Below are positions 9,391 to 34,592 of a stretch of DNA of 34,736 nucleotides, piece after piece. The DNA lies in contig DAHWNL010000087.1 in NCBI GenBank assembly GCA_027339965.1, forward strand, positions 1 to 34,736. Reading direction: 5' to 3'. The first letter of the stretch is position 1; the number at the start of each line of letters is the position of its first letter. A program made the translations under genes and the position numbers. This DNA comes from Granulicella sp. (GTDB taxonomy: Bacteria; Acidobacteriota; Terriglobia; Terriglobales; Acidobacteriaceae). A model generated the notes under the pieces. It worked only from the letters and a program-made list of their open reading frames with translations. It was not told the origin of the DNA and searched no databases.

Positions 9391-9443
9391 ATTTTGACGA
9401 TACATTCCTGACACTGGCGCAGCTCCAAACCTACGAAGGGATA

Positions 9444-9469
9444 TCGGAAGAATAGCTCGGAAGAATAGC
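9444..9469. repeat. 13 bp tandem direct repeat (TCGGAAGAATAGC x2)
   Basis: Seen directly 55-80 bp upstream of the HD-GYP start. Confidence 0.9.
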
Positions 9470-9788
9470 GCAGTCTGCTTTTCGCACAGTCTTTGGAGTT
9501 CTGTCTCCGCGGCCGAATTCCGCCGAATCCCGGCGGCGGGCGCCACTGCGGGCAACCGCTCAAGTGCTTGAGAAACTGCTGGTTCGATGCCTTTGATCGC
9601 GTGAAAGGCCAGGCCTCGCCCGTTGACCGGTCGGTATTTCTTCCCCAGGCCCTCGACAGCCGCGCACGGTTCGTTTGCGCCCGAATCCACAGGGCCTCCC
9701 GCCCGGATCGCCTCTTTCTTTCTTTCACTGCCCATCCAAACCGCCTGAACCCCCAACCACCGGAACCGCACCCATCCGCATCGAGGGC

Positions 9789-10961
9789 TCAGCGAGGAAG
9801 GGAGACTGCCTGCTTGAGAGCATCAGCCACTTCCTGCTGCTGGTTCGCAGTCATGCGGTTGAAAAAGGGCAGTGCCAGCATGCGGGGCGCAACCGCCTGG
9901 GTAACCGGCAGCGGCCGTGCCGCGCTGGCATGGCCCCGCCAGGCCGGCTGCAAGTGGATGGGTGAAAAGTAGCATCCGGTTGCGATGCCTTGGAGCGCAA
10001 GTTCCGATTGCACCCGTTCCCGGCTTGAGCCGATGGGGAGCCGAACCGCATAGACAAACCAACTGATCACCCGGCGCGGAAGCTCCCTGGGCGGCGGCTC
10101 GAGACCCGGAACGTTGGCCAGCAAGGCGTCATACCTTCCGGCAACGGCGTCGCGCAGCGCAAGGATCCGCTCCAGCCGGCTCAACTGCACACGGCCAAGG
10201 GCGCAAGCCAGCTCTGCCAGCCGATAGTTGTAGCCTGGCTCGATGTGCTCCAGCCAGCCGGAGGCTTCCCGGCAGCCGCGCGCATCCGCACCCATGCACA
10301 TCCGGTCCGGGTTACGCCCCTGATTTCTCAAGCTCCGCAGCCGCCGGGCATGGGCGGGGTTGCGGCAAAGTACTGCGCCACCCTCGCCGGTGGTGATTTG
10401 CTTGTTGGGATAAAAGCCAAACACGGCCAGATCGCCAAAGCTTCCGGCGCGACGGGCCGAGGGCGAATCGCCGAATTGAGCGCCGAGAGCCTCGCATGCG
10501 TCCTCGATGATCCGGACGCGATGCCGCCGGGCGATCTCCGCAAACGCATCCATATCCGCCGGAACCCCGAACGTGTGAACCACAAGGATCGCCCTGGTCT
10601 GCGGCGTGATCGCCTGCTCCACGAGCGCAGGATCGAGATTCAGCGTTACCGGTTCGATATCCACAAACACCGGTGTGGCCCGCACCTGCAGGACTACGTT
10701 GGCCACGGCGATAAACGCAAAGGAGGGAAGGATCACTTCGTCCCCCTCGCCGACTCCCAGGACCAGGAGCGCCAGGTGCAGGCCGGCCGTGCCGGAGCTC
10801 ACCGCCACTGCATGGTCAACGCCGTGGTATTTGGCCAACGCTGCTTCAAAAGCCTCCAGTTCCGGTCCCAGGCTGAGTTGAGATGTCCGCAGGACGGCTG
10901 TCGCAGCGTCGATTTCCGCCTTCGTAATATCCGGCGCCGCCAGTGGAATGCGCACTGTCAT
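9789..10961 (-). CDS. DegT/DnrJ/EryC1/StrS-family PLP aminotransferase
   Basis: SSGTAGLHLAL, IIEDACEALG, FGFYPNKQITTGEGG, GYNYRL. Confidence 0.95.
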   Translation of the reverse strand: MTVRIPLAAPDITKAEIDAATAVLRTSQLSLGPELEAFEAALAKYHGVDHAVAVSSGTAGLHLALLVLGVGEGDEVILPSFAFIAVANVVLQVRATPVFVDIEPVTLNLDPALVEQAITPQTRAILVVHTFGVPADMDAFAEIARRHRVRIIEDACEALGAQFGDSPSARRAGSFGDLAVFGFYPNKQITTGEGGAVLCRNPAHARRLRSLRNQGRNPDRMCMGADARGCREASGWLEHIEPGYNYRLAELACALGRVQLSRLERILALRDAVAGRYDALLANVPGLEPPPRELPRRVISWFVYAVRLPIGSSRERVQSELALQGIATGCYFSPIHLQPAWRGHASAARPLPVTQAVAPRMLALPFFNRMTANQQQEVADALKQAVSLPR

Positions 10962-12151
10962 CGATCTTCCACCCCTGAGCAGACGGGAGCCGGCTGTTTG
11001 ATCAGCAACCCGTCAAGCGACACCGTTCTCAGCACGCGGGCAATGGTCTCCGAAGCGGTTCCATCGCCGTACGGATTCGTCATTCCGGCAAGATCTTTGC
11101 GGAAATCAGGTTGCAGAGCTCGGGCAATGGCAGCGCGAATGGCATCTGCCTGCGCAGGCGCATCGATCACATTCCGAGCCCGTTCGCGGCCTTGCTGCCG
11201 GATGCCGACGTTGACGACCGGCAGGCCGAGCGAGGCCGCTTCCATGATTCCGCTCGATGAGTTGCCGATGAGCACCTCCACGGATTGAAGCAGGCTCCAG
11301 TAAGAAACAGCGTCGAGGTTGACAAAGAGATGCGTGTTGGCGCGGGCCGCCGCCAGGCTGCGCACGCGCTCAATGAGCGCATGACTGCCGGCATCCGTAT
11401 TGGGGTGGCAAAAGATCAACTGTCCGGGCGTAGCGGCGAGCGCGGCAAACAGCGCCTCCGCCTCCGCGTTCGTGTCCCGCAGAATCGTGACCGGGTGCCA
11501 TGCGGCGAGCAGCGTTGGCGAGTCAAGCGCGATACCGAGGCGCTCTTCCAGTTGCGCGCGGCTAAGAAGCTTCGAACGGCGCAGATGATCCAGAGACGGA
11601 GCCCCGGCGCGATGTACGCGCCAAGCCTCTTCTCCCAGGGCAAGGACGCGCCGGCGAGCGGTCTCCGTGGAGGTGAAGTGGATATGGGACAGCTTGGTCA
11701 GCGCGTTGCGCACCGCATCGTCGATCGCTCCCTGGCTGACCTCCCCGCCTTCAATGTGCGCCATGGGAATACGCAGCGCCAGAGCCACCGCCGCCGGCGC
11801 CAGCATCTCATAGCGGTCAGCGATCAGCAGCAGGATCTCCGGCCGCCACGCTGTCAGAGCATCTGCAAGGCTCAGGATGGCAAGTCCGATCGTCTTGGCC
11901 ATCCCCGTGTCCGTATCGGAGCTGAGCAGACACTCGATGCGGGCTTGCATGGGAAAGCCGTCCCGCTCGACTTCGGTGATCGTAGAGCCAAACCTGGGTG
12001 AGAGATGAGGGCCCAGCGCGAAGACGCCGAGTTCCACATCCGGCTGGTCCTGCAGGACGCGCAGCGGCCAGTAAAGATGGCTGTAATCCGCGCGCGAGGT
12101 GGTGAGCACACCTATCCTCCGCCGGCCGCGCGCCGTTTCGTTGCCGCTCAT
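10958..12151 (-). CDS. neuC: UDP-N-acetylglucosamine 2-epimerase, hydrolysing (NeuC/LegG type)
   Basis: TSRADY, DRYE, HIEGGE...IDDAVRNALTKLSHIHF, GNSSSGIME, RQQGRE, NPYGDG. 4 bp overlaps with both neighbours. Confidence 0.9.
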   Translation of the reverse strand: MSGNETARGRRRIGVLTTSRADYSHLYWPLRVLQDQPDVELGVFALGPHLSPRFGSTITEVERDGFPMQARIECLLSSDTDTGMAKTIGLAILSLADALTAWRPEILLLIADRYEMLAPAAVALALRIPMAHIEGGEVSQGAIDDAVRNALTKLSHIHFTSTETARRRVLALGEEAWRVHRAGAPSLDHLRRSKLLSRAQLEERLGIALDSPTLLAAWHPVTILRDTNAEAEALFAALAATPGQLIFCHPNTDAGSHALIERVRSLAAARANTHLFVNLDAVSYWSLLQSVEVLIGNSSSGIMEAASLGLPVVNVGIRQQGRERARNVIDAPAQADAIRAAIARALQPDFRKDLAGMTNPYGDGTASETIARVLRTVSLDGLLIKQPAPVCSGVEDR

Positions 12152-13245
12152 GCGGGAACCCGGCTCGGGCCGCCCGCAAGCAGTGCCCGCAGCGTCTCAC
12201 TGGGGGTATAGTCCGGGACCAGGGTCTGCAAATGATCCAGCGCAGCCGCTAGATCGCGGGCATCCAGCGCGCTGCGCAAACGGGCAAGAACGCTGCGCAA
12301 TCTGTCCCGGGCAGGCATGGGCGAGGTGATGGCGATCAGGTCCCCGGCCGGCGCGGCCTGCGGCGTCTCCGGCGGAGACCAGAACTGTTCGCTGGCCTTG
12401 TCACCGGCGCGTAGCCCCGTCTGCCGCACGGAGATGGGAAGACCCCCGGCGAGTTCGCGGATCATGAAGCGCGCCAGGTCCGCGATGCGATGGGCTGCGG
12501 GCAACGCGGGCGCCAGCAGTACCGGCGGCTCCAACTCCAGCGCCGCGGAGAGCAGAAGGCTGACGGCCTCCTCCAGCGTAATGAAGTAGCGGCTGGCTGC
12601 CGGATCCGCCAAGCAGAGGGGTCCTCCTGCGGCAATCTGACCGGCAAAGACCTCAACCACGCTGCCGCGTGAAGCCAGCACGTTGCCCAGGCGCAACGCA
12701 GTGCCGCCGGCGGAAAGAACAATCTGTTCAGCTACCCGTTTGGTGGCGCCCATCACCGATGCGGGGGCTACGGCCTTGTCCGTGGAGAGCAAAACCACAC
12801 GCGCGCCCGCCGCGGCTTCCATGAGTGAAAGCGTCCCGAAGATATTGTTCTCCATGGCCGCCAAAGGCTGCTCTTCAAGAAGCGGCACATGCTTGAAGGC
12901 CCCGGCGTGAAACACCAGTCCCGGAGAGCGACGGGCGAAGATCTCCTCCAGCAGCGCGCGATCCCCGGCGCTGCCCAGCCGGAACTCCGTGGGCACGGTC
13001 AGCCCTGCTCCAGCCCATTGGCGCTGCAGCGAGTGGAGATCGTTTTCCGAGGCATCCAGCAACACCAGCCGGGGCGGGTCCAGCGCCGCGATGCGGGCCG
13101 CAAGCGCGGAGCCGATGGAGCCCGCCGCGCCAATGACCAAGACCGGCGCCTCGCGCAATCCTTGCAGGATATTGTGCGCCGGCGACGCCAGGCTGGGGCG
13201 ATCGAGGAAGCCGCCCCAGTCCGGGATCTTTGGGCAGGGGATCAT
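12148..13245 (-). CDS. nucleotide-sugar 4,6-dehydratase (Polysacc_synt_2, PglF/CapD catalytic domain only)
   Basis: GAAGSIGS, HAGAFKHVP, STDKAV..SVMGATKR, RLGNVLASRGSV. No N-terminal TM region. Start 13245 is supported by a TATACT box 6 nt upstream. Confidence 0.88.
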   Translation of the reverse strand: MIPCPKIPDWGGFLDRPSLASPAHNILQGLREAPVLVIGAAGSIGSALAARIAALDPPRLVLLDASENDLHSLQRQWAGAGLTVPTEFRLGSAGDRALLEEIFARRSPGLVFHAGAFKHVPLLEEQPLAAMENNIFGTLSLMEAAAGARVVLLSTDKAVAPASVMGATKRVAEQIVLSAGGTALRLGNVLASRGSVVEVFAGQIAAGGPLCLADPAASRYFITLEEAVSLLLSAALELEPPVLLAPALPAAHRIADLARFMIRELAGGLPISVRQTGLRAGDKASEQFWSPPETPQAAPAGDLIAITSPMPARDRLRSVLARLRSALDARDLAAALDHLQTLVPDYTPSETLRALLAGGPSRVPA

Positions 13246-13251
13246 CTCCGC

Positions 13252-13257
13252 AGTATA
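13252..13257 (-). promoter_or_regulatory. putative sigma70 -10 box (TATACT) for a leaderless transcript
   Basis: TATACT-GCGGAG-ATG(13245) on the minus strand. Confidence 0.55.
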
Positions 13258-13404
13258 AATCGGGGTGATAGCGCCCCTTGGCGGCCGGAAGAGCCGTCCT
13301 GTTGGCAGTAGCGTGCTTCCCTCGCAAGGTTCGCATACACTAGCCATTGGCGCGGCTGGAAGGGCGGCAATCCCTGGCTACGCGGAAGAGAGTATCCACG
13401 CACG

Positions 13405-16400
13405 ATGCGCATGCGAATCGCCGGATATGCGATGCTGGTAAGCCTTTCCGCGGCTGGCGCCGGCGCGGCAACGGGAAAGACGGACCATCTGGAGGCGATC
13501 CGGCTGAACGATCGCGGCGTTGCGCTGATGAGCCAACAGCTTCCGGAGCGCGCGGCGAGGAACTTCGCCGCGGCTCTCCAGAAGGATCCCGAATTTGCGC
13601 AAGCCGCCGTCAATGAGGGCATAGCGCTCTACGCCCAGCAGAAGCTGGAGGATGCCGAGGCGGCACTGCAAAGGGCCATCCGGATCGACCCAAAAAGCGC
13701 GCAAGCCTGGTACAACCTGGGCTTGACGCAACGCTCTCTGGATGAGTTATCGAAGGCAGCCGCCAGCTTCCGCCGCGCGGCGGCGCTCGACCCCCACGAC
13801 GCGGACTCGTTTTATTTTGAAGGCGCCTGCTACGCCGGGATGGGAGAGTTCTCCGCGGCCATCCCCATCTTCCAGAAGGCGCTGGCGATCAATCCCCTGC
13901 ATCCGTCAGCGGAGTTTGGGCTAGCCCGCTCCCTGGTGCGTACCGGCCATAAAACGGAGGCGCAACAGGACTTCAAACGCTTCCAGATGTTGACAAACGA
14001 CAAACTCGGAACGCCGATCGGCCAGGGCTACGGAGAGCAAGGCCGCTACTCGACCGTAACCGCGGTGCAAGAGCCGGAGACGATCGAACGCAAGATGATA
14101 CCCGTGCGGCTGGCCGCTCGGCCCATGATCCCGGAGAACGCGCCCTCGGCCTGGACAACCGGTGGCGGAGCCTGCATGATCGACGCCACCGGCTCCGGGC
14201 AGATGGACCTGGTGCTGATGCAGTCCGGCTCGCAGGCCATTCGCATCCTTCACCCGCAGAGCGATGGCGCCCTGGTGCAGCTTGATGCTCCGGCCATGGG
14301 GCTGAGCGCCGGCGGTCAGGCCGTCGCCTGCGCCGTAGGCGATTACGATGGCGACAAGCGGAACGATCTGGCGGTCGCCATGAGCAATAGAGTTCTTCTC
14401 TTCCGCAACCTGGGGCACGGCAGGTTCCAGGACGTCACCGCCCATGCGGGCCTGATGCCGCGCAATCGGCCTACAGGAATTTCATTCATCGACTACGACC
14501 ACGATGGAAATCTGGACCTATTCCTCACCGGTTCGCCTCTCCAGCCAGGGGGCGAGTCCAACGTGGTTTGGCGCAATGATGGCGACGGCGCATTTACGGA
14601 GCAGACCCAGCAGACAGGATTGGGTGGAAGCGGCAAGACCTCGGCGGCGATGCTGACCGATTTCAATAACGATCGCGCGGTGGACATTGCAGTCACCGGC
14701 GCTGCGGCCGCACCCATTTTGTACATCAATCCGCGCACTGGCAAATGGCCCACGCAGCCTTTATATGACCGGAAGAGCCTGCCGCCCACCGCGGGCATCG
14801 CCGTGCTTGACTACAACAAAGATGGCTGGATGGACGTTGCGGTGACGCACGCCGGGCCGCCGGGGCTCACCTTGTGGCGCAATGTTGCAGCGCCCAAACC
14901 CCTCGCCCGGCGTTTTGAACAGGTGCGTCTGCCCCTGCAAGGCGCCTTGCGCGGCTGGGGGGTGACGCCGATCGACATTGACAACGACGGCTGGATCGAT
15001 CTGGCCGCCATTGTGGACACGAAGGCAGGACCGCAGGTGCATGTCTTCCGGAACCGAGGCGATGGGACGTTTGAGGATGTGAGTGCCGCGCTGGGACTGG
15101 ACAAGGTGCAACTCAAGGCTCCGCGCGGACTGATCGCGGCTGACCTGGAGAACAAGGGCGCCGCCGACCTGATTGTGACGCAGCGGAACGCTCCGCCCGT
15201 GTGGCTGCGCAACGTGGGCGCAAACAAGAATCACTTTGTACGCCTGGCCCTGGTCGGCAATGCCGACAACAAGACCGGGATCGGCGCCAAGGTGGAGGTG
15301 TTCGCCAATGGCCTGTGGCAGAAGTGGGAGTTGACAGGAGCTTCCGGCTACCAGACGCAGGGACCGCCGCAGATTCTCATTGGACTGGGCAAGTCCGAAG
15401 GCATCAGCCTGCTGCGCATCCTGTGGCCCACAGGCGTCTTGCAGGACGAAATGAATCTGCCGCACACGGAAACCATCACGGAAGACGAAGTAGACCGGCG
15501 CGGCAGCTCCTGCCCGGTGTTGTTTGTGTGGAATGGAAACAATTACCAGTTTGTTACCGACGTGCTGGGCGCGGGCGTGGTGGGGCACTGGTTTACGCCC
15601 GCGCGGCACAACATTCCTCGCCCCAGCGAGTGGGTCAAGGTGGACGGCGAAGATGTGGCTCCGGTGAACGGGAAGGTGAGTGTGCGCTTCATGGAGCCGA
15701 TGGAGGAGGTAAACTACGTCGACCAATTACGGCTGGTGGCCGTGGACCACCCCAAGAATGTGAGGGTGAATCCGGACGAGCGGTTCCTCGACAGCCCTCC
15801 ATTTGCATCCGGCCAGGTGGTGGCCAGTGTGGACGCGCGCCCCCCGGCGGGCGCCTGGGATGGGACCGGACGCGATGTTCTGGACGAACTGCTCCGGCGG
15901 GATCACCGGTTTGCCGGCGGGTTCACTCCACTGCCGTATGATGGCTTCGCCAACCTCCACGCGTTGACCCTGGATCTGGGCAGGATCGATACCCAGGGTC
16001 CATTGCGGTTACTGATGACCGGCTATGTGAATTACTTCAGCGCGACATCGCTTTATGCGGCTTGGCAGGCCGGCGTGCGGCCCATTGATCCGTATATTGA
16101 AGCGCAGCTTCCCGACGGCGAATGGCGGCGCATCGACGCAAGGGCTGGATTTCCAGCGGGTCTGGAGCGCACCATCGTGGTGAACCTCACAGGCAAGCTG
16201 CCGCCGGGCACGCGTCGTATCCGTCTGATGACGAACCTGGAGATCTACTGGGATCAGGTCCTCATCGATCGTCATGCTCAAGGCGGCTTCCGCGCGACGG
16301 AGTTGCCTTTGGAGCTGGCCACTGAGCAGTTTCAAGGCTATCCCAAGGAGATCGACGGCCCCAGCCCCGGCGATCTCAGCTACAACTACAATCTGGCCAG

Positions 16401-16866
16401 CCTGACCGGACCCTTTCAGCACGAAGCCGGCGATTACACGCATTTCGGCGATGTGACGCCGCTTTTGAAGAGCATCGACGACCGCTTCGCCATCTTCGGC
16501 AGCGGCGAGGGGATTGCCGCTGAGTTCGATGCATCCCGCCTTCCATCATTGCCGCCGGGCTGGAAGCGCGATTACTTCTTCTACGCCAACGGCTATGAAA
16601 AGGACATGGATTGGTGGGACTCCTCGCCGTTCACCGTATCGCCGCTTCCCTTCCATGAGATGACATCCTATCCCTATTCCATCGAAGAAGGGTTTCCGGC
16701 CAGCGCCGCCTCGCTTCGCTACCGCCTGAATTGGAACGATCGTTATGTCTCCGGCAAACCCACGGGGTTGCACCGGTTCCAGTATCAGTGGCTGCCTTCC
16801 GCGCCGAGCGACGATCCGGCGAAAGACGCGCGAGAACGCGCGCCGGATCACGTCGGCTCGGAGTGA
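13405..16866 (+). CDS. secreted TPR + FG-GAP repeat + ASPIC/UnbV (CRTAC1-like) protein
   Basis: Signal peptide, TPR helices (AWYNLG, ALAINP), repeated DxDxDG motifs (DYDGD, DYDHDG, DFNND, DYNKDG, DIDNDG), GIGAKVEV...WPTG, then SCP and a long C-terminal domain. Confidence 0.9.
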   Translation: MRMRIAGYAMLVSLSAAGAGAATGKTDHLEAIRLNDRGVALMSQQLPERAARNFAAALQKDPEFAQAAVNEGIALYAQQKLEDAEAALQRAIRIDPKSAQAWYNLGLTQRSLDELSKAAASFRRAAALDPHDADSFYFEGACYAGMGEFSAAIPIFQKALAINPLHPSAEFGLARSLVRTGHKTEAQQDFKRFQMLTNDKLGTPIGQGYGEQGRYSTVTAVQEPETIERKMIPVRLAARPMIPENAPSAWTTGGGACMIDATGSGQMDLVLMQSGSQAIRILHPQSDGALVQLDAPAMGLSAGGQAVACAVGDYDGDKRNDLAVAMSNRVLLFRNLGHGRFQDVTAHAGLMPRNRPTGISFIDYDHDGNLDLFLTGSPLQPGGESNVVWRNDGDGAFTEQTQQTGLGGSGKTSAAMLTDFNNDRAVDIAVTGAAAAPILYINPRTGKWPTQPLYDRKSLPPTAGIAVLDYNKDGWMDVAVTHAGPPGLTLWRNVAAPKPLARRFEQVRLPLQGALRGWGVTPIDIDNDGWIDLAAIVDTKAGPQVHVFRNRGDGTFEDVSAALGLDKVQLKAPRGLIAADLENKGAADLIVTQRNAPPVWLRNVGANKNHFVRLALVGNADNKTGIGAKVEVFANGLWQKWELTGASGYQTQGPPQILIGLGKSEGISLLRILWPTGVLQDEMNLPHTETITEDEVDRRGSSCPVLFVWNGNNYQFVTDVLGAGVVGHWFTPARHNIPRPSEWVKVDGEDVAPVNGKVSVRFMEPMEEVNYVDQLRLVAVDHPKNVRVNPDERFLDSPPFASGQVVASVDARPPAGAWDGTGRDVLDELLRRDHRFAGGFTPLPYDGFANLHALTLDLGRIDTQGPLRLLMTGYVNYFSATSLYAAWQAGVRPIDPYIEAQLPDGEWRRIDARAGFPAGLERTIVVNLTGKLPPGTRRIRLMTNLEIYWDQVLIDRHAQGGFRATELPLELATEQFQGYPKEIDGPSPGDLSYNYNLASLTGPFQHEAGDYTHFGDVTPLLKSIDDRFAIFGSGEGIAAEFDASRLPSLPPGWKRDYFFYANGYEKDMDWWDSSPFTVSPLPFHEMTSYPYSIEEGFPASAASLRYRLNWNDRYVSGKPTGLHRFQYQWLPSAPSDDPAKDARERAPDHVGSE

Positions 16867-19197: not shown

Positions 19198-20964
19198 CTA
19201 CAGCACCTCCGCCCAGCGCGGCGAGGCGGCAAAGGCGGCGTGAATCAGACCGACGTGAGAGTACGTCTGAGGGAAGTTGCCCCACATGCGCTTCTCCCGG
19301 GGATCGTAGTCCTCGGCCAGCAGGCCGAGGGGCGACAGAGTGGCATAGATACGCTGGAAGACCGCTCTGGCGTCTGCCTGACGACCGATGGCGGCCAGCG
19401 CCTCAATCAGCCAGAAGGCGCAGATCACAAAGGCGACCGAGGGTTTGCCGAATCCATCATTCAGGCTGTAGCGCTGTAGCCAGTCGCCGAGTGCGAGATC
19501 TTTGTGGATCTTGTCGATGGTGCTGACGATTCTTGGATCGCCGGGAGGAAGAAAACGCAACTGAACCATCTGCAGCAGCGAAGCGTCCAGGTCCTCGCCG
19601 CCGTAGTGGCCGACAAAGCTGTTGACCTTTGCGTTCCATGAGTTGGCCAGGACCTCGGCATGAATGCGATCGGCGGCGGCGCGAAACTCGGCGGCGTGCT
19701 CCGGCGCATGCAGATCGGCGATCTTGCCCATGCGATCCGCCGCGGCCCAGCACATCAGGTTGGAGAAGGTTTGCGGCTGCCATTCGGTGCGGTACTCCCA
19801 GATGCCGGCATCCGGTTTGCCGGAGACCGAGATGGCCTTGCGCGCCAATCCTTCCATCAGCCGCAGGGCCGCGGGCGAGCGCTCCGCGCTCATGCGCTCA
19901 TCCAGAAAGACCGGCGCCAGGGCCATAACCATCTCTCCGAAGATGTCGTTCTGGGAGTGCAGCGCAGCGCCGTTTCCGATGCGCACCGGCTTGATGCCGT
20001 TGTAGCCCGCCCAATGTTCCAGGATGGACTCGTCCAGGTTGCTGGTTCCATCAACCCGATAGAGGGGTGCAAGGTTCAGGTCCGGAGCGCCTCCGGCCAC
20101 GTTCAGAAGATACTGGACAAACTGCTCCCGTTCTTCAAACTGGCCCAGCAGCCCGAAGGCGCTGAGCACGTAGTAGGAGTCGCGCAGCCAGCAGTAGCGA
20201 TAGTCCCAGGTGCGTCCGCCCTCGGGCGACTCCGGGATGGAGGTGGTCATGGCGGCGATGATGGCTCCGGTGTCTTCAAAGCAATGCAGCTTGAGCGCCA
20301 GCGCAGAGCGGATCACCTCTTTCTGGAACATGGGCGGAATCTCGCACTGCTTCACCCATCGCTGCCAATAGCGGGTGGTCTCATTCAGAAACCGTTCGCA
20401 CAAAGGAGCGACAGGCTCTTCCACCGGCGCTCCCCAGGCCAGAATCATGTGCTGGCGGCCGGTGAGCGTGAAGGGCCTGCCGTTCAAGTAGGAGAGCGAG
20501 ATGTCCGTGGTCAGCCGAAGTTCGGTATCAAACCCTTCAAAGCGCAGATGGTGGGAGCCTTCCACGGTCTTGGGCTGCATCTTTGACCATCCCAGCCGGG
20601 GCGCGCAGACGATCTCGATACGCGGCGCGCCGGAGATCGGCTCCAGAATCCGATACAACTGCTTGGGCCGGAAGGTGCGATCGTAGTGCAGGAAACGGGG
20701 AGCGAAGTCGATGATCTTAAAAGAGCCCGTGTCGGTGTGGAAGGTGGTCTCCAGAATGTTGGTATTCGGCACATAGGCTTGTGTGCCCACCTCTCCATTG
20801 GCTGGCCGGATGCGAAAGGCGCCGCCCTCTTCCTCATCCAACAGAGTGGAGAAGATGGGTTCGGAGTCGAAGCGAGGCAAACAGCACCAGACAATCTCAC
20901 CGCTCTTGTGGATCAACGCGGAGAACTGACAGTTTCCGATCAGTCCAAGGTCTTCAATTCGCAT
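19198..20964 (-). CDS. glycoside hydrolase family 15 (probable trehalase)
   Basis: LIGNC, PRFDS, WDYRYCWLRD, GIWEYR, LLAED, GNFPQTYSH. Start may be 20964, 20982 or 20991. Confidence 0.92.
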   Translation of the reverse strand: MRIEDLGLIGNCQFSALIHKSGEIVWCCLPRFDSEPIFSTLLDEEEGGAFRIRPANGEVGTQAYVPNTNILETTFHTDTGSFKIIDFAPRFLHYDRTFRPKQLYRILEPISGAPRIEIVCAPRLGWSKMQPKTVEGSHHLRFEGFDTELRLTTDISLSYLNGRPFTLTGRQHMILAWGAPVEEPVAPLCERFLNETTRYWQRWVKQCEIPPMFQKEVIRSALALKLHCFEDTGAIIAAMTTSIPESPEGGRTWDYRYCWLRDSYYVLSAFGLLGQFEEREQFVQYLLNVAGGAPDLNLAPLYRVDGTSNLDESILEHWAGYNGIKPVRIGNGAALHSQNDIFGEMVMALAPVFLDERMSAERSPAALRLMEGLARKAISVSGKPDAGIWEYRTEWQPQTFSNLMCWAAADRMGKIADLHAPEHAAEFRAAADRIHAEVLANSWNAKVNSFVGHYGGEDLDASLLQMVQLRFLPPGDPRIVSTIDKIHKDLALGDWLQRYSLNDGFGKPSVAFVICAFWLIEALAAIGRQADARAVFQRIYATLSPLGLLAEDYDPREKRMWGNFPQTYSHVGLIHAAFAASPRWAEVL

Positions 20965-20994
20965 TTTCCCCGGCAGGCTCATCAGTCCCATTTA

Positions 20995-21000
20995 TATAAT
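20995..21000 (+). promoter_or_regulatory. perfect TATAAT -10 box, putative leaderless otsA promoter
   Basis: TATAAT-AGAAAC-ATG(21007); no Shine-Dalgarno sequence. Confidence 0.6.
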
Positions 21001-21006
21001 AGAAAC

Positions 21007-23256
21007 ATGACGCGATTGGCGAGGTTCATCCTCGGCCTGCTGGTAGCCCTTGCGTTGTTGACCTGGACAGTGTCCGGAGTGGTGCAGACGACAACGCGCG
21101 AATGGTTTGAGCGAGACGTCAGTGAGCATGCGCGGCTTGCGATGGTGAGCGCGACGCGGTCGCTGGCCGATGCCTGGTACGATCCCGATGGCCTGAAGAC
21201 CCGCCTGCTGGCCATTGACCGCAACCAGCATGTGATTGGAGTGGCGGCCTGCAATGTTGATTTAACAACCCGGTCCATGACACCGGACCTCCCCGAGGTC
21301 TTTCGCTGCCAGGCATTAGGCGCCTGGGTGCGAGCCGCAGGCACCGCTGCGGGAGACACCAATCCGAAGCTGCAGGAGTGGAGTACCGTTGCCACGCTGC
21401 CCACGGGGCGGGTGTACGTTGCGGCCATGCCGGTAGTGATGCAGGGGCAGATTCTGGGCTTTGTAATCCTTGCTCATGACTTGAGCTACATTCAGCGCCG
21501 CGAGGCCAGAGCGCAGACCTTTCTGCTGATTGTCTTTGGCATTCTTGCGGTGCTGGCCTTCGGCGTTCCACTTCTGGTTGCCCGGCGGGTCCGCGATGAC
21601 TGGAGCACGGAGGTGCGCAAGCTCCTGCACGGCGGAGGCAAAAAGGAGCCGCGTGAGTTTCAACCCATCCTGAGCGATGTGCGAGAGCTGATTGCGCGCA
21701 TGGCCGACGAGCGCGAGGATCTGCCCGGACAGTGGACGGCGGACCGGCTGCGGCAGATTCTGAATCGCAATCTGCACGGCGAGAAGATTGTGATTCTAGC
21801 CAATCGCCAGCCCTATAGCCATATTCGAGGCGAAGACGGCAGTATTGAAGTGCAGCATCCGGCCAGCGGCCTGGTGACGGCGCTGGAGCCCATCATGCGC
21901 GCCTGCTCCGGCGTGTGGGTTGCCCATGGCAGCGGAAATGCCGATCGAGAGACGGTGGATCGCAGCGATCACGTGCGGGTTCCACCAGAGGAAGAGTCCT
22001 ACCACATACGCCGCATCTGGCTCAGCGAAGAGGAGCAGCAGGGCCACTATTACGGCTTCTCCAATGAGGGGTTGTGGCCGTTGTGCCACATCGCCCACAC
22101 CCGTCCAACCTTCCGCTCGGAAGATTGGGAGTACTACAAGCAGGTAAATCAGAAGTTTTCTGACGCGGTGTGCGGTGAGGTGGACTCCGAGGACCCCATC
22201 ATCATGGTGGAGGACTACCATTTTGCCCTGGCCCCAGCCATGATCCGCAAGCGCATGCCGGCGGCCACCATTATCGCCTTCTGGCATATTCCGTGGCCGA
22301 ACGCAGAGCGCATGGGGATCTGCCCCTGGCACAACGAGATCCTGGAGGGACTGCTGGGCAGCAGCATCGTCGGCTTCCACACGCAACTCCACTGCAACAA
22401 CTTTCTGGATTCGGTGGACCGTTACCTGGAGACCAGACGCGACCGAGAACAGAATGCGGTGATCATGCACGGGCAAAGGACGCTGGTGCGGCCTTACCCT
22501 ATCTCCCTGGAATGGCCCGTCCACTGGGCGGAGATGTCGCCAGACTCTGCGGAGTGCCGGGCAAAGGTCTTCCAGGAGCTTGGCTTGAAGCCGGACGCTC
22601 TGCTGGGGCTTGGCGTTGACCGGCTGGACTATACCAAGGGAATTGAAGAGCGGCTGGCGGCGGTGGAGATGCTGCTTGACCGCTATCCGAGGTTCCGTGG
22701 ACGCTTCACCTTTGTCCAACTGGCGGAGCCAAGCCGCACAAAGATCACCCGGTACAGGGATCTGAATGAGGCGGTTGAACTGCTGGCCAGGCGCATCAAC
22801 GATCGATTCGGCACGGAAGACTATCGTCCCGTGGTCCTCCTGCGTTCTCATCATGAGCCGCCCGAGGTCTTCCGCTACTATCGCGCCGCGGACCTGTGTT
22901 ACGTAAGCAGCCTGCACGACGGCATGAATCTGGTGGCCAAGGAGTTTGTGGCCGCTCGTACGGATCTGCGAGGTGTGCTGATTCTGAGTGAGTTTACGGG
23001 AGCGGCGCAGGAGCTGACCGAAGCGTTGATTGTGAATCCATACGATCTGGTGAAGAGCAGCGACGCCCTGGCCGCTGCACTTTCCATGCCGGAGGAAGAG
23101 CAGTTGGACCGCATGCAGGCCATGCGCTCCATGATTAGCCGTTTCAATGTCTATCGGTGGGCGGGAAAGATGCTTGCGGATGCCGCGCACCTGCGCAGCC
23201 AGGAGCGGCTCTCCGGGCGCCTGGCGGAACGTATGAACGTGGGTACCAACATCTGA
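21007..23256 (+). CDS. otsA: trehalose-6-phosphate synthase (GT20) with N-terminal TM-extracytoplasmic-TM module
   Basis: [56 protein letters not shown]. About 255 aa N-terminal extension with two hydrophobic helices. Confidence 0.93.
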
Positions 23257-23258
23257 CC

Positions 23259-24005
23259 ATGAAGTATCTCCTATCCAAGACATCCCTACCTGTTGTGAAG
23301 CGTTTGGCCCAGGATCATACGCTGTGCGCCTTTGATTTCGACGGCACGCTGGCTCCCATCGTGGACAACCCCCGCATGGCCCGGATGCGTAGCTCCACGC
23401 GAACCCTGTTGAAGCGCGTCGCATCTCTTTACCCGTGCATTGTGGTCTCGGGCAGAAAGAGAGAAGACGTTCTCCATCGGCTGAATGGCATTCCCCTGGC
23501 CGGCGTCTTTGGCAACCATGGGGCTCAGGCGGACGGCAAGAAACACGAAGACCTCCGCATCAGGCGCTGGAAGAAGATGCTGGAAGCCGAGATTGGAGAT
23601 CTGCCCGGCGTCTGGGTGGAGGACAAGGGATCGTCTCTGGCGGTGCACTATCGCCAGTCTTCGCGGCCCGCCCACTCGCTGCGCCAGATCGCCGCCGCGG
23701 TGGCCAAGTTGAATGAAGTGCGCGCCTTCGGCGGCAAGAAGGTGGTGAACCTGGTGGCCGATGGCGCCCCCACCAAAGCCGACGCAGTGGCCGCCGAGTG
23801 GGACCGCTTGGGCTGCAAACGAGTCTTGTATCTGGGCGATGACGAAAACGATGAAGATGCCTTTGGTCTGGAGGGTGACGTGGTCGCGGTCCGCATCGGC
23901 AAGAAGAAGCAGACCAAGGCCCGCTACTATCTGCGGTCGCAAGTAGAGATTGATCAACTTCTGACTTGCTTGAAGCATCTGCGCGAGATGAAGACGGCTG
24001 GATAG
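23259..24005 (+). CDS. otsB: trehalose-6-phosphate phosphatase (HAD)
   Basis: FDFDGTLAP, VSGR, GNHG, VEDKG, HYR, GDDENDE. Starts 2 bp after otsA. Confidence 0.93.
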   Translation: MKYLLSKTSLPVVKRLAQDHTLCAFDFDGTLAPIVDNPRMARMRSSTRTLLKRVASLYPCIVVSGRKREDVLHRLNGIPLAGVFGNHGAQADGKKHEDLRIRRWKKMLEAEIGDLPGVWVEDKGSSLAVHYRQSSRPAHSLRQIAAAVAKLNEVRAFGGKKVVNLVADGAPTKADAVAAEWDRLGCKRVLYLGDDENDEDAFGLEGDVVAVRIGKKKQTKARYYLRSQVEIDQLLTCLKHLREMKTAG

Positions 24006-24386: not shown

Positions 24387-24749
24387 ATGAGTGAAGCGCT
24401 GAAGCGTGAGAAAGTTCCGGTTACCAACACCCGGCCTCACAACGGTGCGGCTGACCTATGGCAGTTTGTGCCCGACGGAGTTCTCCCGCTCAAAGACCCG
24501 CAGACCGACATCCCTCGCATTGCCAAGGACAAGCATCTCGTCAAGCTGATCGGCGAAGCCGCACAGCGCATCCCGACCACGCACAGGCTCAACCTGGGGG
24601 ATGCTCGTGTTGACATGAGCAGACTGCCGGAAGGCGACGTCCACCTGGTCGTCACGTCTCCACCCTAATGGATCTTGAAGGGGTACTGAGACTCGGATGG
24701 CCAGATGGGCCATATCGAGGAGTACGACGAGTTCTTGAAAGAGCTGGAC
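24387..24749 (+). pseudogene. N4-C/N6-A DNA methyltransferase N-terminal remnant (SPPY type)
   Basis: LGDAR...VHLVVTSPP*WILKGY*DSDGQMGHIEEYDEFLKELD, with in-frame stops at 24666 and 24687. Confidence 0.85.
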
Positions 24750-24971
24750 GCTGTCACCGGCGGCGCGCAGATGGACGGGTTTATTAAGCCCGTGCGCCAG
24801 CTGCTGTGCGAGTCCGGCCTGCCCGAGACCGACGTTTCCTGCGGGAGATACGTCGAGTTGCCAGGTTGGCATCGTCCCGAGAAGAAATGGGATCTGCTGG
24901 TTGTATCGGAAGGCCGGCTCCTCGCGGGCATTGAGTTCAAGTCGCATATCGGCTCCTTCGGCAACAATTAC
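24750..24971 (+). pseudogene. PaeR7I/XhoI-family type II restriction endonuclease internal fragment
   Basis: AVTGGAQMDGF...LPGWHRPEKKWDLLVV...IEFKSHIGSFGNNY; truncated at both ends. Confidence 0.85.
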
Positions 24972-25399
24972 CTAGCGCACATCCCTGGAAGATATTGCAT
25001 AACCCCCCGAGCATAAGCCTGAAGCAGGCGACACAGAAGAAGGCTTCGTTGAATGAGAAGCAACCCGAGGAGGCGGGCCGGCAAGCACCGAAAGTTTTCT
25101 AGCCAAGCGCTGGGTCTTTCCATCCTCAAGCGATTGCGGGGCGCCTTACGGCATCGTCTTTGTTGCCTCCCGTCAATTCGTCGCCAGCCCATACCCCGCG
25201 CTCCAAGCGCTTCTCTTGATCGCCCGTCAGATGACGAAGCATCTCCTGCCCTAGAAGCCCCAGGGCCAGGACGGAGACTCGAATCTCCGCAAGGTCGGCG
25301 TTCGACGTTGTGAGAACCGGCTGCGCTCAGCGTACGTTCCGGCTGGAGTATTCTTGCAAGGGGATACTCGATCGAGGAGTTCATTCCAGGAGAAGCTAC

Positions 25400-27778
25400 A
25401 TGACGAAGACGTCTTCCCGTTGCATTGCAGGCCTTTTTACGACTCTCTTGTCTCGCTCCAAAGGAGCGGTCACGGCGCTCATCGTTCTTGGGGCGCTGGT
25501 CTCCCTTGCCGGGGGACAAACTTCTTCGTCCGGGCTCGCTGCGTCGTCTGGGCTCGCTGCGTCGTCTGGGCCCGCTGCCAGCGTGGATCCAATCCTGGGG
25601 ACGGGCGAGGGTCCGGGAGGTGGCATCAATCTATTTCCCGGCGCCACCACGCCCTTTGGCATGGTGCAGCTTAGCCCTGATACCCAGGATCATGGTTATG
25701 GTTACCACTACAGCGACCCTTTCATCGGTGGATTCAGCATGACCCACATGAGCGGCGTGGGATGCCCCAATGAAGGCGACGTCTTTTTTACGGCGACCAC
25801 CGGGCCTATCCACACCACACGCGATGATTTTTCTTCGCCGTACTCGCACACCATGGAGAGCGCCAGGCCGGGCTACTACCAGGTGCGCCTGCTGGAGTGG
25901 AACATCCATGCCGAGCTGAGCGCCACCGATCACACCGGGATGGCTCGATTCACCTTTCCCGCAGGTCAGCCAGCGAACATCCTGCTGCCGATCAGCCACT
26001 CGGAGAGGAACGTCACTGGCGCCTCAGTGCAGATCGTGGGCGACAGGCAGATTGAGGGTTACGTGGAAGACCAGGCGTTTTGCGGCAATTTGCAGCGCTA
26101 CAAGGTCTACTTCGTCATGACCTTCAGCAAGCCGTTTGCCTCTTACGGAACCTGGACCGGGAAGAAGTATGGAGGCCCGGGCAGCATCGCCGCGGGCAGC
26201 CGCACGGCGGAGCAGTCCGGGCATCAGGGATGGATCGGGGCCTACACAAGCTGGCCAGCCGCACCCCACGCGCAGACGGTCACGGTGAAGATCGCCATCT
26301 CCTATGTTGACCCTGCCGGCGCGGAGAACAACCTGAAGACCGAGGCGGCCGGCAAGAACTTTGCGACCATCCGCAGCGAGGCGGAGGCAGCATGGAACCG
26401 GGAGCTGAGCACCATTGACATCTCTGGAGGAACCAAGGCGCAGCGCACGGTCTTCTATACGGCGCTCTATCACTCCCTGCTGATGCCCAGTCTGTTCAGC
26501 GATGCGGATGGCCGCTACCTGGGCTTCGACGGCCAGATCCACAAGGCTCCTCCGGGCCACGCGGTCTACGCCAACTATTCGGGCTGGGATATCTACCGCA
26601 GCCAGATGCCGCTGCTGGCGATGATCGAGCCGCAGCGCATGGAAGACATGGCGCAGTCCGTGGTGCTGATGTACCAACAGGGCGGCTGGATCGGGCGCTG
26701 GCCGCAGACGAATCTCTATACCAACATCATGGCGGGAAGTCCGTTGAGCGTGGCGCTGGCTACGGCCTGGCTGGATGGACTGCACGGCTTCGACATGAAG
26801 GCCGGCTGGGAGGGCATGTTCAAAGACGCTACCGAGGCTCCGGCACCCGGCCATCCGTACGCCGGCGAGCAGGGCATCGACTGGATCAACAAGCTCCACT
26901 ACGTGCCGGATGACAGGGTGGGTTACGGCTCCGTCTCGCAGCTTCAAGAAGACGCTATCGCCTACGCCTCCCTGTATCGCCTGGCGAAGGATCTGGGCAA
27001 AACCGTCGACGCCAGAACGCTCTACGACCGCGCGCTGTACTATCGCAACGTCTTCGATAACGCCGATGGCTTCTTCCGCCCGCGCAAAGCCGATGGCAGC
27101 TGGGTGAAGAACTTCGATCCCGCGCAGGATGGTCACGGATTCATCGAAGGCAGCGGCTGGCATTATCAGTGGCTGGAGCCTGCCGATGTGGCCTGGGTGG
27201 TGAAAGCGATGGGCCCGGAGGTCTTCAATCAGCGTTTGAAGGAGTTCTTCAACTATCCGGTCCCGGACTGGTACGGCAAGTACTACAACCCGTATAACGA
27301 GACCGATCTCGAAGCTCCGTTCCTGTTCAACTTCTCTGGCCGCCCGTGGGAGACGCAGCGGGTGGTGCGCCGTGTGCTGGAGGAGAACTACACGGATGAC
27401 CCCAACGGCATCCCAGGCAATGATGACTGCGGCGAGATGTCCTCCTGGGCGGTTCTGAGCATGATGGGCCTCTACAGCGTGGACCCGGCCAGCCTGGCCT
27501 ATGAGCTGGTGGGCCCCACGTTCCCGAAGACGGTGATTCATCTCCGCCAGCCGTACCCAGGCAAGACGTTCACCATTGAAGCCAACGGAGCGGGGCCAAA
27601 GGCTGCCTATATTCAGAAGGTGGAACTGAACGGCCAGGCGCACGCGCAGAACTGGATCTCATTCAAGGCGATCTCTACTGGAGGCAACTTGCGCTTCGAG
27701 CTAGGAACAACACCGAACCATGCCTGGGGCTCCGCGCCTGCCGATGCGCCACCTTCGTTGAGCGACGCCAAGCCGTAG
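25400..27778 (+). CDS. GH92 glycoside hydrolase (alpha-mannosidase family), secreted
   Basis: FPGATTPFGMVQLSPDT, FSMTHMSGVGC, FYTALYH, WDIYR, FIEG, GNDDCGEMSSW. AGGAG RBS. Confidence 0.95.
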   Translation: MTKTSSRCIAGLFTTLLSRSKGAVTALIVLGALVSLAGGQTSSSGLAASSGLAASSGPAASVDPILGTGEGPGGGINLFPGATTPFGMVQLSPDTQDHGYGYHYSDPFIGGFSMTHMSGVGCPNEGDVFFTATTGPIHTTRDDFSSPYSHTMESARPGYYQVRLLEWNIHAELSATDHTGMARFTFPAGQPANILLPISHSERNVTGASVQIVGDRQIEGYVEDQAFCGNLQRYKVYFVMTFSKPFASYGTWTGKKYGGPGSIAAGSRTAEQSGHQGWIGAYTSWPAAPHAQTVTVKIAISYVDPAGAENNLKTEAAGKNFATIRSEAEAAWNRELSTIDISGGTKAQRTVFYTALYHSLLMPSLFSDADGRYLGFDGQIHKAPPGHAVYANYSGWDIYRSQMPLLAMIEPQRMEDMAQSVVLMYQQGGWIGRWPQTNLYTNIMAGSPLSVALATAWLDGLHGFDMKAGWEGMFKDATEAPAPGHPYAGEQGIDWINKLHYVPDDRVGYGSVSQLQEDAIAYASLYRLAKDLGKTVDARTLYDRALYYRNVFDNADGFFRPRKADGSWVKNFDPAQDGHGFIEGSGWHYQWLEPADVAWVVKAMGPEVFNQRLKEFFNYPVPDWYGKYYNPYNETDLEAPFLFNFSGRPWETQRVVRRVLEENYTDDPNGIPGNDDCGEMSSWAVLSMMGLYSVDPASLAYELVGPTFPKTVIHLRQPYPGKTFTIEANGAGPKAAYIQKVELNGQAHAQNWISFKAISTGGNLRFELGTTPNHAWGSAPADAPPSLSDAKP
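25526..25579 (+). repeat. in-frame 18 bp tandem repeat x3 (SSGLAA/SSGLAA/SSGPAA)
   Basis: TCGTCCGGGCTCGCTGCG, TCGTCTGGGCTCGCTGCG, TCGTCTGGGCCCGCTGCC, just after the GH92 signal peptide. Confidence 0.9.
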
Positions 27779-31099: not shown

Positions 31100-31267
31100 G
31101 ACGCGTGGAGGCCGCTCGCTTGAGTGTGCGCGCGATCGCGCGCACACTCAACTCTCTGTCCCGCTTCACTTGAAGCTCGATACGCTGCTCAAGACTCAAC
31201 TGCTCATACGATCTGCCCATGCAACATCTCTTCCTCGAAGTGTTGCACTTCTACCTGGAGCGCGGCC
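31100..31267 (-). mobile_element. IS30-family remnant (left end plus transposase N-terminal HTH)
   Basis: MGRSYEQLSLEQR...SVRAIARTLKRAAST from ATG 31220. Upstream GAAGTGCAACAC resembles IS30-family IR cores. Confidence 0.8.
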
Positions 31268-31492
31268 TTGCCCAGTTATTCGCCGGAGCTGAACCCGGAC
31301 GAGTTGCTGAATGCCGACCTGAAGCAGAGAGTCACGAAGGCTGCTCCGGCACGAAACAAAATTGCCCTGACGCGCACTGCCATCAGTGCACTGCATAGCA
31401 TCCAGAAGCAGCCTGATCGAGTCGAACACTACTTCGGACAAAAAGATGTGTCGTAGGCCGCATAGGTCGCACTCTTCAGGGCCGGATCAGTA
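31268..31492 (+). mobile_element. IS630-family remnant (transposase C-terminus plus right end)
   Basis: LPSYSPELNPDELLNADLK...IQKQPDRVEHYF. Ends GGCCGGATCAG-TA, consistent with a TA target. Confidence 0.85.
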
Positions 31493-33570: not shown

Positions 33571-34592
33571 ACAGCAGTTCTAAATGGCAGAGGGATCGAG
33601 ATCGCTATTGGCGTCGGGGGAGAGTGATGCTCTGTTGAAGCATGGAGATATTGGAGTCGCTTGTGGGCGGGTTACGCAGGGTGTGCGCTGGACTTCCTGA
33701 TCCACGACGCGGTACGGATGTGGATTGCAGCATGGAGGATATTGGGCTTTCAGCGTTTTCCCTGTTTTTCATGCAGAGCGAGTCGCTCCGGGCCACAACC
33801 TGGTGCTGCCGTTGATGCCCGAGTTCATCACCCCGCAGGATGGAGCCGAAAAGCAGAATTGCGAGCGCAGTGCAGCCAAACGCTGGTTGCTGGCCCATGG
33901 AGAACGCGTCAAGGACTTGCGCCCGGTCTATGTGGGCGACGCTCTGTTCAGCAGCCAGCCGATGGCCGAGGCGATGCTGGCCACCGGTGCAGACTTTTTG
34001 TTGGTATGCAAAAGGGACAGCCACAAGACCCTGTACGAGTATGTCGAGGGAGTGTCGCTGGAGCAATATGAAGTGACCGGGACCCGGCAACCGCAGCCTG
34101 ACCTATCGCTACCGCTGGATCAACAGGGTTCCGCTGCGCGACGGCAAAGATGCGCTGAGCGTCGACTGGCTCGGGGTAAGCATCACCGATGCCAAGGGAA
34201 AGACCACCTACGATGGCGCCTTCGTGACCAGTCTGGCCTTGACGGAGGACAACGTGGTGGAAGTTACGGCCTGTGCGCGGGCGCGCTGGAAAATCGAGAA
34301 TGAGAGCTTCAGCGTGTTGAAGAATAACGGCTATAACCTGGCCCACAACTTCGGACACGGCAAACAATACCTGGCCCGGATCTTCGCCGCGATGAACCTG
34401 CTGGCCTTTGCCTTCCACACGGTTTGCGACTGCCTGGAAATCTCCTGGCAACAAGCCCGCCAGGCCATCGCAACCCGCTCCCGATTCTTTCAGGACCTCC
34501 ATACCATCTGCGCCTACGTCCTGTTCCCATCCTGGGCTTGCCTCATGATTCCTCTCATCTCCGGCAAAGCTCCGCCTATTTAGAATCGCTGG
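33571..34592 (+). mobile_element. ISNCY-family (ISDol1-like) insertion sequence, internally deleted, 1022 bp
   Basis: IRs ACAGCAGTTCTAAAT (33571-33585) and ATTTAGAATCGCTGG (34578-34592), 12/15 match. 7 bp direct repeat CTACAGG at 33564-33570 and 34593-34599. Confidence 0.88.
33642..34583 (+). pseudogene. ISNCY DDE transposase pseudogene
   Basis: LPDPR...DIGLSAFSLFFMQSES jumps by deletion near 33784 to VAPG...PEFITPQDGAEKQNCE...GDALF. Frameshift near 34080. RARWKIENE.F..LKNNGYNLAHNFGHG. The stop lies inside the right IR. Confidence 0.9.

Follow-up and report, generated by a model that had tools for sequence, protein, structure and literature searches.

Organization of the otsA fusion gene

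The window analysed here is contig DAHWNL010000087.1 of the Granulicella sp. assembly GCA_027339965.1, a stretch of 34,736 nucleotides (nt). Between a GH15 trehalase-like gene and otsB it carries an otsA gene on the forward strand (21007..23256; ATG at 21007, TGA at 23256), the product of which is a predicted receptor-type trehalose-6-phosphate (T6P) synthase of 749 amino acids (aa). This protein, called the OtsA fusion below, has a first transmembrane segment (TM1), a Cache domain, a second transmembrane segment (TM2), a linker and a GT20 glycosyltransferase domain, in this order.

TM1 is predicted at aa 8-26 (21028..21084, hydropathy 2.31) and continues into the Cache domain as its long first helix (aa 2-55 in the model). 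The predicted extracytoplasmic single Cache domain, which is WalK-like, occupies aa 27-172 (146 aa, 21085..21522); most of it is modelled with a predicted local distance difference test score (pLDDT) above 90, and it matches WalK. TM2 is predicted at aa 173-191 (21523..21579, hydropathy 2.92) and is followed by a basic stretch with five K/R in aa 192-207. Judged by hydropathy and charge bias, aa 27-172 are predicted to face outwards and GT20 inwards. The two-helix cytoplasmic linker (aa 192-242, 21580..21732), a shortened homolog of a HAMP-like linker, is followed by a helix starting at W243 (aa 243-256, 21733..21774), which leads into the first GT20 strand and is shared with some soluble sister enzymes. 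The GT20 T6P synthase domain covers aa 260-726 (21784..23184), and an extended C-terminal helix with an LRxxERLxGR-like sequence (23185..23253; helix 715-747 in the model) completes the protein. All these features lie on the forward strand.

This layout agrees closely with an earlier note that had been made on the sequence. About 255 aa had been claimed ahead of GT20, and 259 aa were measured (Pfam GT20 at aa 260-726, E 1.4e-119). The two hydropathy peaks (21028-21084 and 21523-21579) are offset by at most 3 nt from the transmembrane positions it gave, its two Cys (in AACNV and FRCQA) are C82 (21250..21252) and C101 (21307..21309), the sole Cys before aa 300, and its terminal hairpin lies where it was placed, as 27 aa at aa 136-162. 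In the OtsA fusion this hairpin gives a third, weaker hydropathy peak (1.89) and is modelled as two beta strands. A third transmembrane segment at aa 138-156 was rejected in view of these strands, and because 115 of the 120 proteins tested had two peaks only. An upstream GTG start at 20686 was also rejected, as it overlaps the GH15 gene and homology begins at the ATG at 21007.

Fold of the outer domain

The AlphaFold2 model of aa 1-255, built from 84 sequences, had a pLDDT of 90. It contains helix 2-55, helix 60-71, five strands and a short helix 101-108; its C-terminal part is a continuous helix 160-207 passing through TM2, followed by helices 216-236 and 245-254. The long N-terminal helix and the PAS-like five-stranded sheet that define a single Cache domain are both present. 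With this model the top five Foldseek matches were all WalK (best E 6.7e-8). In a wide VIA structure search the WalK outer domain (4ywz) ranked first, with Z 13.9-14.3 and a root-mean-square deviation (rmsd) of 2.3 Å over 130 of 147 residues, and was followed by KinD, CitA (Z 12.3), DctB and other Cache domains. A second look with VIA found a WalK model with both transmembrane segments and the linker, at Z 16.0 over aa 1-239 (rmsd 7.2 Å). The Cache-like fold proposed in the earlier note is borne out by the AlphaFold model and by the Foldseek and VIA matches to WalK.

The sequence link to Cache sensors does not depend on the fold evidence, but it is weaker. The homologs fall into a Cys subtype, to which the OtsA fusion belongs, and a Cys-less sister subtype, and the two align with an hhalign probability of 99.8 over 249 columns. 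The Cys-less profile matches solved kinase sensor domains (5o7j, E 1.5e-4; WalK, E 1e-3 to 9e-3). A sequence search of the PDB with the Cys-subtype profile gave no significant match (best E 0.026), and none of the Pfam Cache-clan models matched the 749-aa protein. Among the 84 members of the alignment, two match sCache_3_2 (best E 4.8e-6) and 11 match SMP_2; one homolog, L038, scores 27.1, under the Cache-clan cut-off of 28.4. In the ESM Atlas, sCache_3_2 and Cache_WalK/HAMP clusters are among the neighbours (0.93-0.95), and Pfam and NCBIfam gave weak matches only on aa 1-255 (AtoS, E 3e-4; BioY; GAF_PdtaS). Homodimer prediction for aa 1-255 gave 0.22 and 0.27 against a mark of 0.42, with controls not folded, and is used neither way.

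Motifs of three other classes were absent. The CXXCH motif of Cache_heme is missing, the sole two Cys being 19 residues apart. The CSS motif is missing, as the residues after C82 are NV and those after C101 are QA, and the OtsA fusion had no CSS-family match. A kinase output of the WalK type (HisKA/HATPase) is missing, aa 260-726 being GT20.

Conserved residues of the outer domain

C82 lies at the end of the first strand and C101 at the start of the helix after the second strand. Both were found in 79 of 84 diverse sequences (of the five exceptions, one is Cys-less, two look frameshifted and two have one Cys of the pair) and in all full-length close homologs of two sets (157/157 and 120/120). 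The Cys-less sister subtype has neither. The two residues are likely disulfide partners, and the pair is most likely a stabilising disulfide, which might also be read for its redox state. Two genomes (G044 and G010) hold two full Cys-subtype copies each (L018, L019, L029 and L030), G010 with a partial third copy, L031; in three of the four full copies an extra Cys lies two residues past the C82 position, and in one it lies three residues past.

Residues W33, D37, P96, G151, D158, R165, W199, P220, D224 and W243 are near-invariant across homologs, and sheet positions 137 (H/Y/Q/L) and 157 (H/Q/N/Y) vary. In all five pairs formed with close homologs, the ratio of nonsynonymous to synonymous substitutions (dN/dS) was 0.039-0.102 for the outer domain and 0.038-0.080 for GT20. 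Purifying selection acts on the outer domain as strongly as on the enzyme. Selection and residue conservation together rule out decay, and they leave a sensory and a structural role undivided. The Granulicella copy has the swaps R41H, D73N, E74Q and R75H (window 21127-21231), found in 5, 3, 9 and 19 of 157 close homologs, respectively; one may speculate that they reflect a pH-related retuning.

The GT20 domain

The match to PF00982 scored 400 bits (cut-off 32.5), and the full-length model confirmed the GT-B fold, with an rmsd of 2.4 Å and a template modelling score of 0.92 to 5jio. In NCBIfam the trehalose-phosphate synthases ranked at the top, yet under their cut-offs (TIGR02400, 417 versus 564.85 bits); the GgpS score was lower than that of OtsA (309 bits). 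With respect to the TIGR02400 shortfall, the GT20 domain is a member of a divergent subfamily. Alignment and matching to 5JIJ showed that R267, Y348, W357, D403, H427, R539, K544, R577, D638 and E646 are conserved, and from E. coli OtsA we take these to be acceptor- and donor-binding residues. Two changes are family-wide: the glycine loop reads ASGL (S287), and His307 stands at a Trp position in 69 of 70 rows. In the alignment these two changes are a subfamily signature. The catalytic domain looks intact and is a predicted T6P synthase, which the otsB and GH15 context supports.

Past the NVYRW motif the tail measured 21-65 aa in 33 anchored fused rows versus 12-25 aa in 10 soluble sisters. The longer C-terminal helix may contact the linker.

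The linker

In the Cys-less subtype the linker has the sequence P-I-A-R-x-A-x-W-M-R-x-L-R, a connector of 12-14 residues, P-L-A-x-E-V and a coiled-coil-like run. Linkers were compared by hhalign with 32 true HAMPs, with 100 column shuffles as control. The Cys-less linker scored 19.7 over 49 columns, which none of the 100 shuffles reached, and the probability was low (21.6%). A PF00672 (HAMP) match is absent from the OtsA fusion, and a PF00672 search of five genomes had no OtsA linker, the Cys-less ones included, among the 150 of 157 rows listed. By homology the linker of the Cys subtype derives from a HAMP, being a shortened form of the sister linker; by profile it is no HAMP, since its score of 9.7 is reached by shuffles. 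The earlier note had expected a helical, HAMP-like linker; the helices were found, a HAMP score was not, and what remains is a shortened relative of a weakly HAMP-like sister linker. In the early-branching homologs L025 and L050 the Cys pair is present and the seven-residue deletion is absent, which fits a gain of the Cys before the shortening of the linker. By the tests run, the OtsA fusion is a GT20 member with a Cache-fold domain, and is not of HAMP, CSS, Cache_heme or WalK-kinase type.

Distribution and phylogeny

A search with aa 1-255 gave 435 matches among 8000 candidates, and the best 120 (query included) all carry PF00982. A profile search gave 3110 matches and a search with a distant member 2847, each among 8000 candidates, and GT20 was present in 119 of the 120 matches listed in either case; the fusion, for which the earlier note had called for a survey across genomes, is conserved. 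Matches to the distant member include many Betaproteobacteria (Rhodocyclales, Gallionellales, Rhodoferax, Sulfurisoma). phmmer on 50% representatives gave 399 matches. Among the best 120-150 matches per search, 56 representatives have at least 30 aa after the module; 39 of them match GT20, and the other 17, judged by eye, mostly resemble frameshifted GT20 reads or chimeras, none being kinase-like. No match to aa 1-255 was found among plasmids. The fusion is present in Acidobacteriota, Myxococcota and Betaproteobacteria, with Sulfurisoma sediminicola as an example of a cultured carrier, and the outer domain is held at a fixed length of 146 aa across the three phyla.

In a sample of 301 Acidobacteriota genomes, 110 had a GT20 match (132 matches in all), and the upstream frame was read for 72 of the 132, made up of 49 among the best 51 and 23 that were weaker. 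The Cache fusion was found in 26 genomes, 11 with the Cys subtype and 15 with the Cys-less one, and 24 of the 26 had no unfused OtsA with the GT20 query. The fusion occurs patchily, and G235, which belongs to the same genus, had no GT20 match.

A tree of 54 GT20 domains was rooted on six canonical OtsA; the other 24 of 78 domains had been dropped as near duplicates or superfluous outgroup rows. In this tree the members of the Cys subtype group together in a clade (support 98/96) that includes three rows without Cache. The two Cache subtypes are joined in a quick tree (SH-aLRT 90) and form a polytomy with soluble sisters in a careful tree. In a neighbouring branch of Acidobacteriota GT20 domains, the enzyme is fused in frame to a Na+/H+-exchanger (PF00999) at four loci with three family codes (L063:1459-4521, reverse; L064:1432-5394, reverse; L067:1432-5289, reverse; L068:1043-3964, forward). 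This branch is a second recruitment of OtsA to a membrane protein.

Genomic context

The otsB gene for T6P phosphatase (23259..24005, forward; TIGR00685, 93 bits versus a cut-off of 68) begins 2 nt past the otsA stop, and the two genes are likely co-transcribed. The GH15 trehalase-like gene (19198..20964, reverse; PF00723 and TREH_N) is divergent from otsA. In a comparison of 14 loci from GTDB genomes of Acidobacteriota and Myxococcota, all 14 have the GH15 gene in divergent orientation; otsB is next to otsA at 12, and at the other two the contig ends first. GT20 stands directly downstream of the module in 13 of the 13 loci that reach far enough.

The divergent intergenic gap (20965..21006, 42 bp) is a candidate leaderless promoter. 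It contains TATAAT at 20995-21000, 6 nt ahead of the otsA ATG, and has no Shine-Dalgarno match. TAnnnT ending 5-8 nt before the start was found in 10 of 22 homologs, which are related and not independent, versus 147 of 2499 long open reading frames of the genome (5.9%), suggesting a leaderless otsA mRNA. A promoter scan at the otsA start found no -35/-10 pair, and no Rfam family matched in the window. In four Myxococcota loci the trehalase/otsA gap holds a palindrome, TTGGA-N2-TCCAA (L012:3151-3220, L013:4931-5000, L014:4931-5000, L015:3022-3091), which is a candidate operator and does not occur in the window.

The genome, 98.9% complete, has a single GT20 match, which is the OtsA fusion. No TreY or TreS over the cut-off was found in it; TreT and TreP were not searched for. 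The OtsA fusion looks like the main, bulk trehalose route of the cell. The likely output is trehalose itself and not T6P as a messenger, because the sole OtsA found in the genome lies between otsB and the divergent GH15 gene. The suggestion of the earlier note that T6P could be a signal output is less likely, given that otsB begins 2 nt past the stop and that the search of the genome gave no second OtsA. A TreS/alpha-amylase-like gene elsewhere in the genome (G000:C41:4398-5900) is split over several frames with an internal stop and may be broken.

The remaining genes of the window include an amidase (PF01425; 17603-19024, forward) and a secreted-looking GH92 glycosidase (25310-27778, forward), both unrelated to the OtsA fusion. 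Other assignments were made by eye: a 1153-aa protein with a signal peptide and TPR-like and FG-GAP-like repeats (13405-16866, forward); a tandem HD-GYP-like protein and, after it, a nucleotide-sugar cluster with aminotransferase, UDP-GlcNAc 2-epimerase-like and dehydratase-like genes (7879-13347, reverse); and short frames resembling restriction-endonuclease and transposase fragments (24705-25016, 31124-31456 and 33661-34583).

Discussion

Descriptions of Cache domains present them as the input part of signalling proteins; bacterial OtsA is described as a soluble enzyme under transcriptional and metabolite control. We propose that the OtsA fusion is a membrane receptor and an enzyme in one protein, in which the Cache domain would control the T6P synthase via the shortened HAMP-derived linker, and to this reading we give a probability of roughly 0.55. 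The adjacent OtsB likely turns the T6P made into trehalose. Cache-HAMP receptors work as dimers or higher oligomers, and the OtsA fusion would act as one too. An envelope cue would displace the last Cache helix and TM2, which are one continuous helix (aa 160-207) in the model. The linker helices would then shift the W243 helix, which leads into the first strand, that of the acceptor-phosphate arginine R267, and the long C-terminal helix would possibly be moved as well. The open/closed cycle of the GT-B fold would be biased in this way. As the cue, a physical state of the envelope (osmotic or desiccation state, pH) or a partner protein seems to us more plausible than a dedicated small-molecule ligand, because the invariant residues W33, D37, C82, P96, C101, G151, D158 and R165 look structural and other sheet positions vary. 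Such a receptor would place under post-translational control a pathway that lies beside its own trehalase, with the benefit of limiting futile cycling.

Several results weigh against such a receptor. The linker of the Cys subtype, that of the OtsA fusion included, scored 9.7 against true HAMPs, a score reached by 26 of 100 shuffles, and in it some seven residues of the first helix and a large part of the connector are missing. In the monomer model of the full-length protein, aa 196-240 have a pLDDT below 50 and the predicted template modelling score is 0.68, so that coupling of sensor and enzyme is not modelled. Three members of the Cys-type clade have no Cache domain: L032 (3947-5764), on the Aminobacter plasmid NZ_CP015007.1, is a 605-aa protein, 50% identical, with one transmembrane segment, a short linker and GT20; L059 has no Cache homolog upstream; L062 lies near a contig end. 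Soluble sister enzymes exist as well. The loss of four family-conserved charges in the Granulicella copy could mean a retuned or a weakened sensor.

Some of these points would be expected if the kinase-derived module only tethers or oligomerises OtsA at the inner membrane, or feels the bilayer through its transmembrane segments, with the Cache domain kept for folding or stability. The Aminobacter relative with one transmembrane segment and a short linker, the shortened linker of the OtsA fusion, the structural look of the invariant residues and the use of a different membrane domain by the neighbouring branch all speak for this explanation, which we consider unlikely, though worth serious attention. 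An anchor needs one transmembrane segment, however, and here a 146-aa domain is kept at fixed length in three phyla with a dN/dS equal to that of the enzyme, and W199, P220 and D224 of the linker are nearly invariant. A redox switch, in which the Dsb system sets the thiol/disulfide state of C82-C101 and this state is the signal, as with the CSS-domain phosphodiesterases of E. coli, seems improbable to us. The pair is present in 277 of 277 close homologs and absent from the sister subtype, the genome has three DsbA-like (PF13462) matches, and PdeB, PdeC and PdeG are reported to be regulated in this manner (PMC13712737). The CSS motif is absent, however; the Cys-less subtype has the same architecture, so that the design does not need the pair; and periplasmic Cys pairs are often structural, as is reported for that of PdeN (PMC13712737).

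Two further explanations concern the product. A signalling enzyme like a diguanylate cyclase, with T6P as the message, would share the architecture seen here; some genomes (G010, G044) have two copies, and 10 of 14 Cys-less loci had no otsB match within the approximately 1.5 kb downstream covered with a divergent query. We regard this as very improbable, as otsB lies 2 nt past the stop in the window and is adjacent at 12 of 14 loci, and the sole OtsA found, with no TreY or TreS over the cut-off, looks like a bulk trehalose route. The chance that GT20 is inactive or makes another product, such as glucosylglycerol phosphate, seems equally slight. The score under the NCBIfam OtsA cut-off (417 versus 565 bits), the ASGL glycine loop and His307 at a conserved Trp position would fit it, but the ten active-site residues from R267 to E646 are present and conserved, GgpS scores lower (309 bits), otsB and a trehalase-like GH15 gene flank otsA, and ASGL and His307 are family-wide (69/70).

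Beyond the single protein, it is conceivable, if a little less than an even bet, that a widespread receptor class with a biosynthetic output exists, in which a disulfide-stapled Cache domain senses an envelope cue and switches osmoprotectant synthesis on or off within seconds without kinase, second messenger or transcription, and that the OtsA lineage has been wired to membranes repeatedly. The repeated wiring would comprise Cys-less Cache-HAMP proteins, Cys-type Cache proteins with a short linker and Na+/H+-exchanger fusions. If so, the largest family of extracellular sensors would gain a new output class (Cache to glycosyltransferase), and with trehalose as the read-out, the signal to which WalK-like Cache domains respond could be approached directly. 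Environmental bacteria, in which the fusion is often the sole OtsA (24 of the 26 sampled carriers), would have fast protection against desiccation and osmotic stress. Natural variants that have a fuller HAMP-like linker, or that lack the Cys pair or the sensor, could be used as controls.

Comparison with known systems

The Cache-GT20 architecture is real and conserved, and it is apparently undescribed. No description of such a fusion was found in the literature searched, which mostly did not cover subscription journals, and the OtsA section of a 2024 review, as far as its text was available, does not mention it (PMC11046441). GSU2337 was said only to contain a synthase domain (PMC2700814), and a GH15-otsB-otsA cluster was reported with no such module described (PMC3164672). 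The outputs given in Table 1 of a Cache census are kinases, chemoreceptors, cyclases, phosphatases, transcription factors and channels, and the census passages available list no glycosyltransferase (PMC4822843).

The GT-B fold, the catalytic residues and the linkage to otsB are shared with soluble OtsA/Tps1 (5JIJ/5JIO of M. thermoresistibile, 1GZ5/1UQU of E. coli, 5HUT of C. albicans), with an identity to 5jio of about 35%. In contrast to these enzymes, the OtsA fusion has a 259-aa membrane module, the ASGL and AHGSG motifs and a longer C-terminal helix, and none of the 23 solved relatives matches before aa 256. RipTPS of Ralstonia solanacearum is also an OtsA with an N-terminal extension, of 77 aa, but this is a type III secretion signal and not a membrane sensor; its essential residues Y154, W163 and D208 probably correspond to Y348, W357 and D403 by motif and spacing (PMC4278537). 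The TPSP-GT-MSC system of Thermoproteus tenax is likewise reported as a post-translationally activated prokaryotic T6P synthase with a genetic tie to a membrane stress protein, but its components are separate proteins, a partner glycosyltransferase activates the enzyme and there is no fused extracytoplasmic domain (PMC3634074).

On the sensor side, WalK (YycG) and single-Cache kinases (4YWZ, 5IS1, 7DUD; CitA, DcuS) have the same input of TM1, Cache, TM2 and helical linker. Identity is about 10%, and the OtsA fusion differs in its glycosyltransferase output, its Cys pair and its shortened linker. The CSS-domain phosphodiesterases have two transmembrane segments around a two-Cys periplasmic domain that controls a cytoplasmic enzyme in one chain (PMC13712737). 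The OtsA fusion differs from them in lacking the CSS motif and in having a biosynthetic output; they are a precedent for signalling from a two-Cys periplasmic domain between two transmembrane segments to an attached enzyme.

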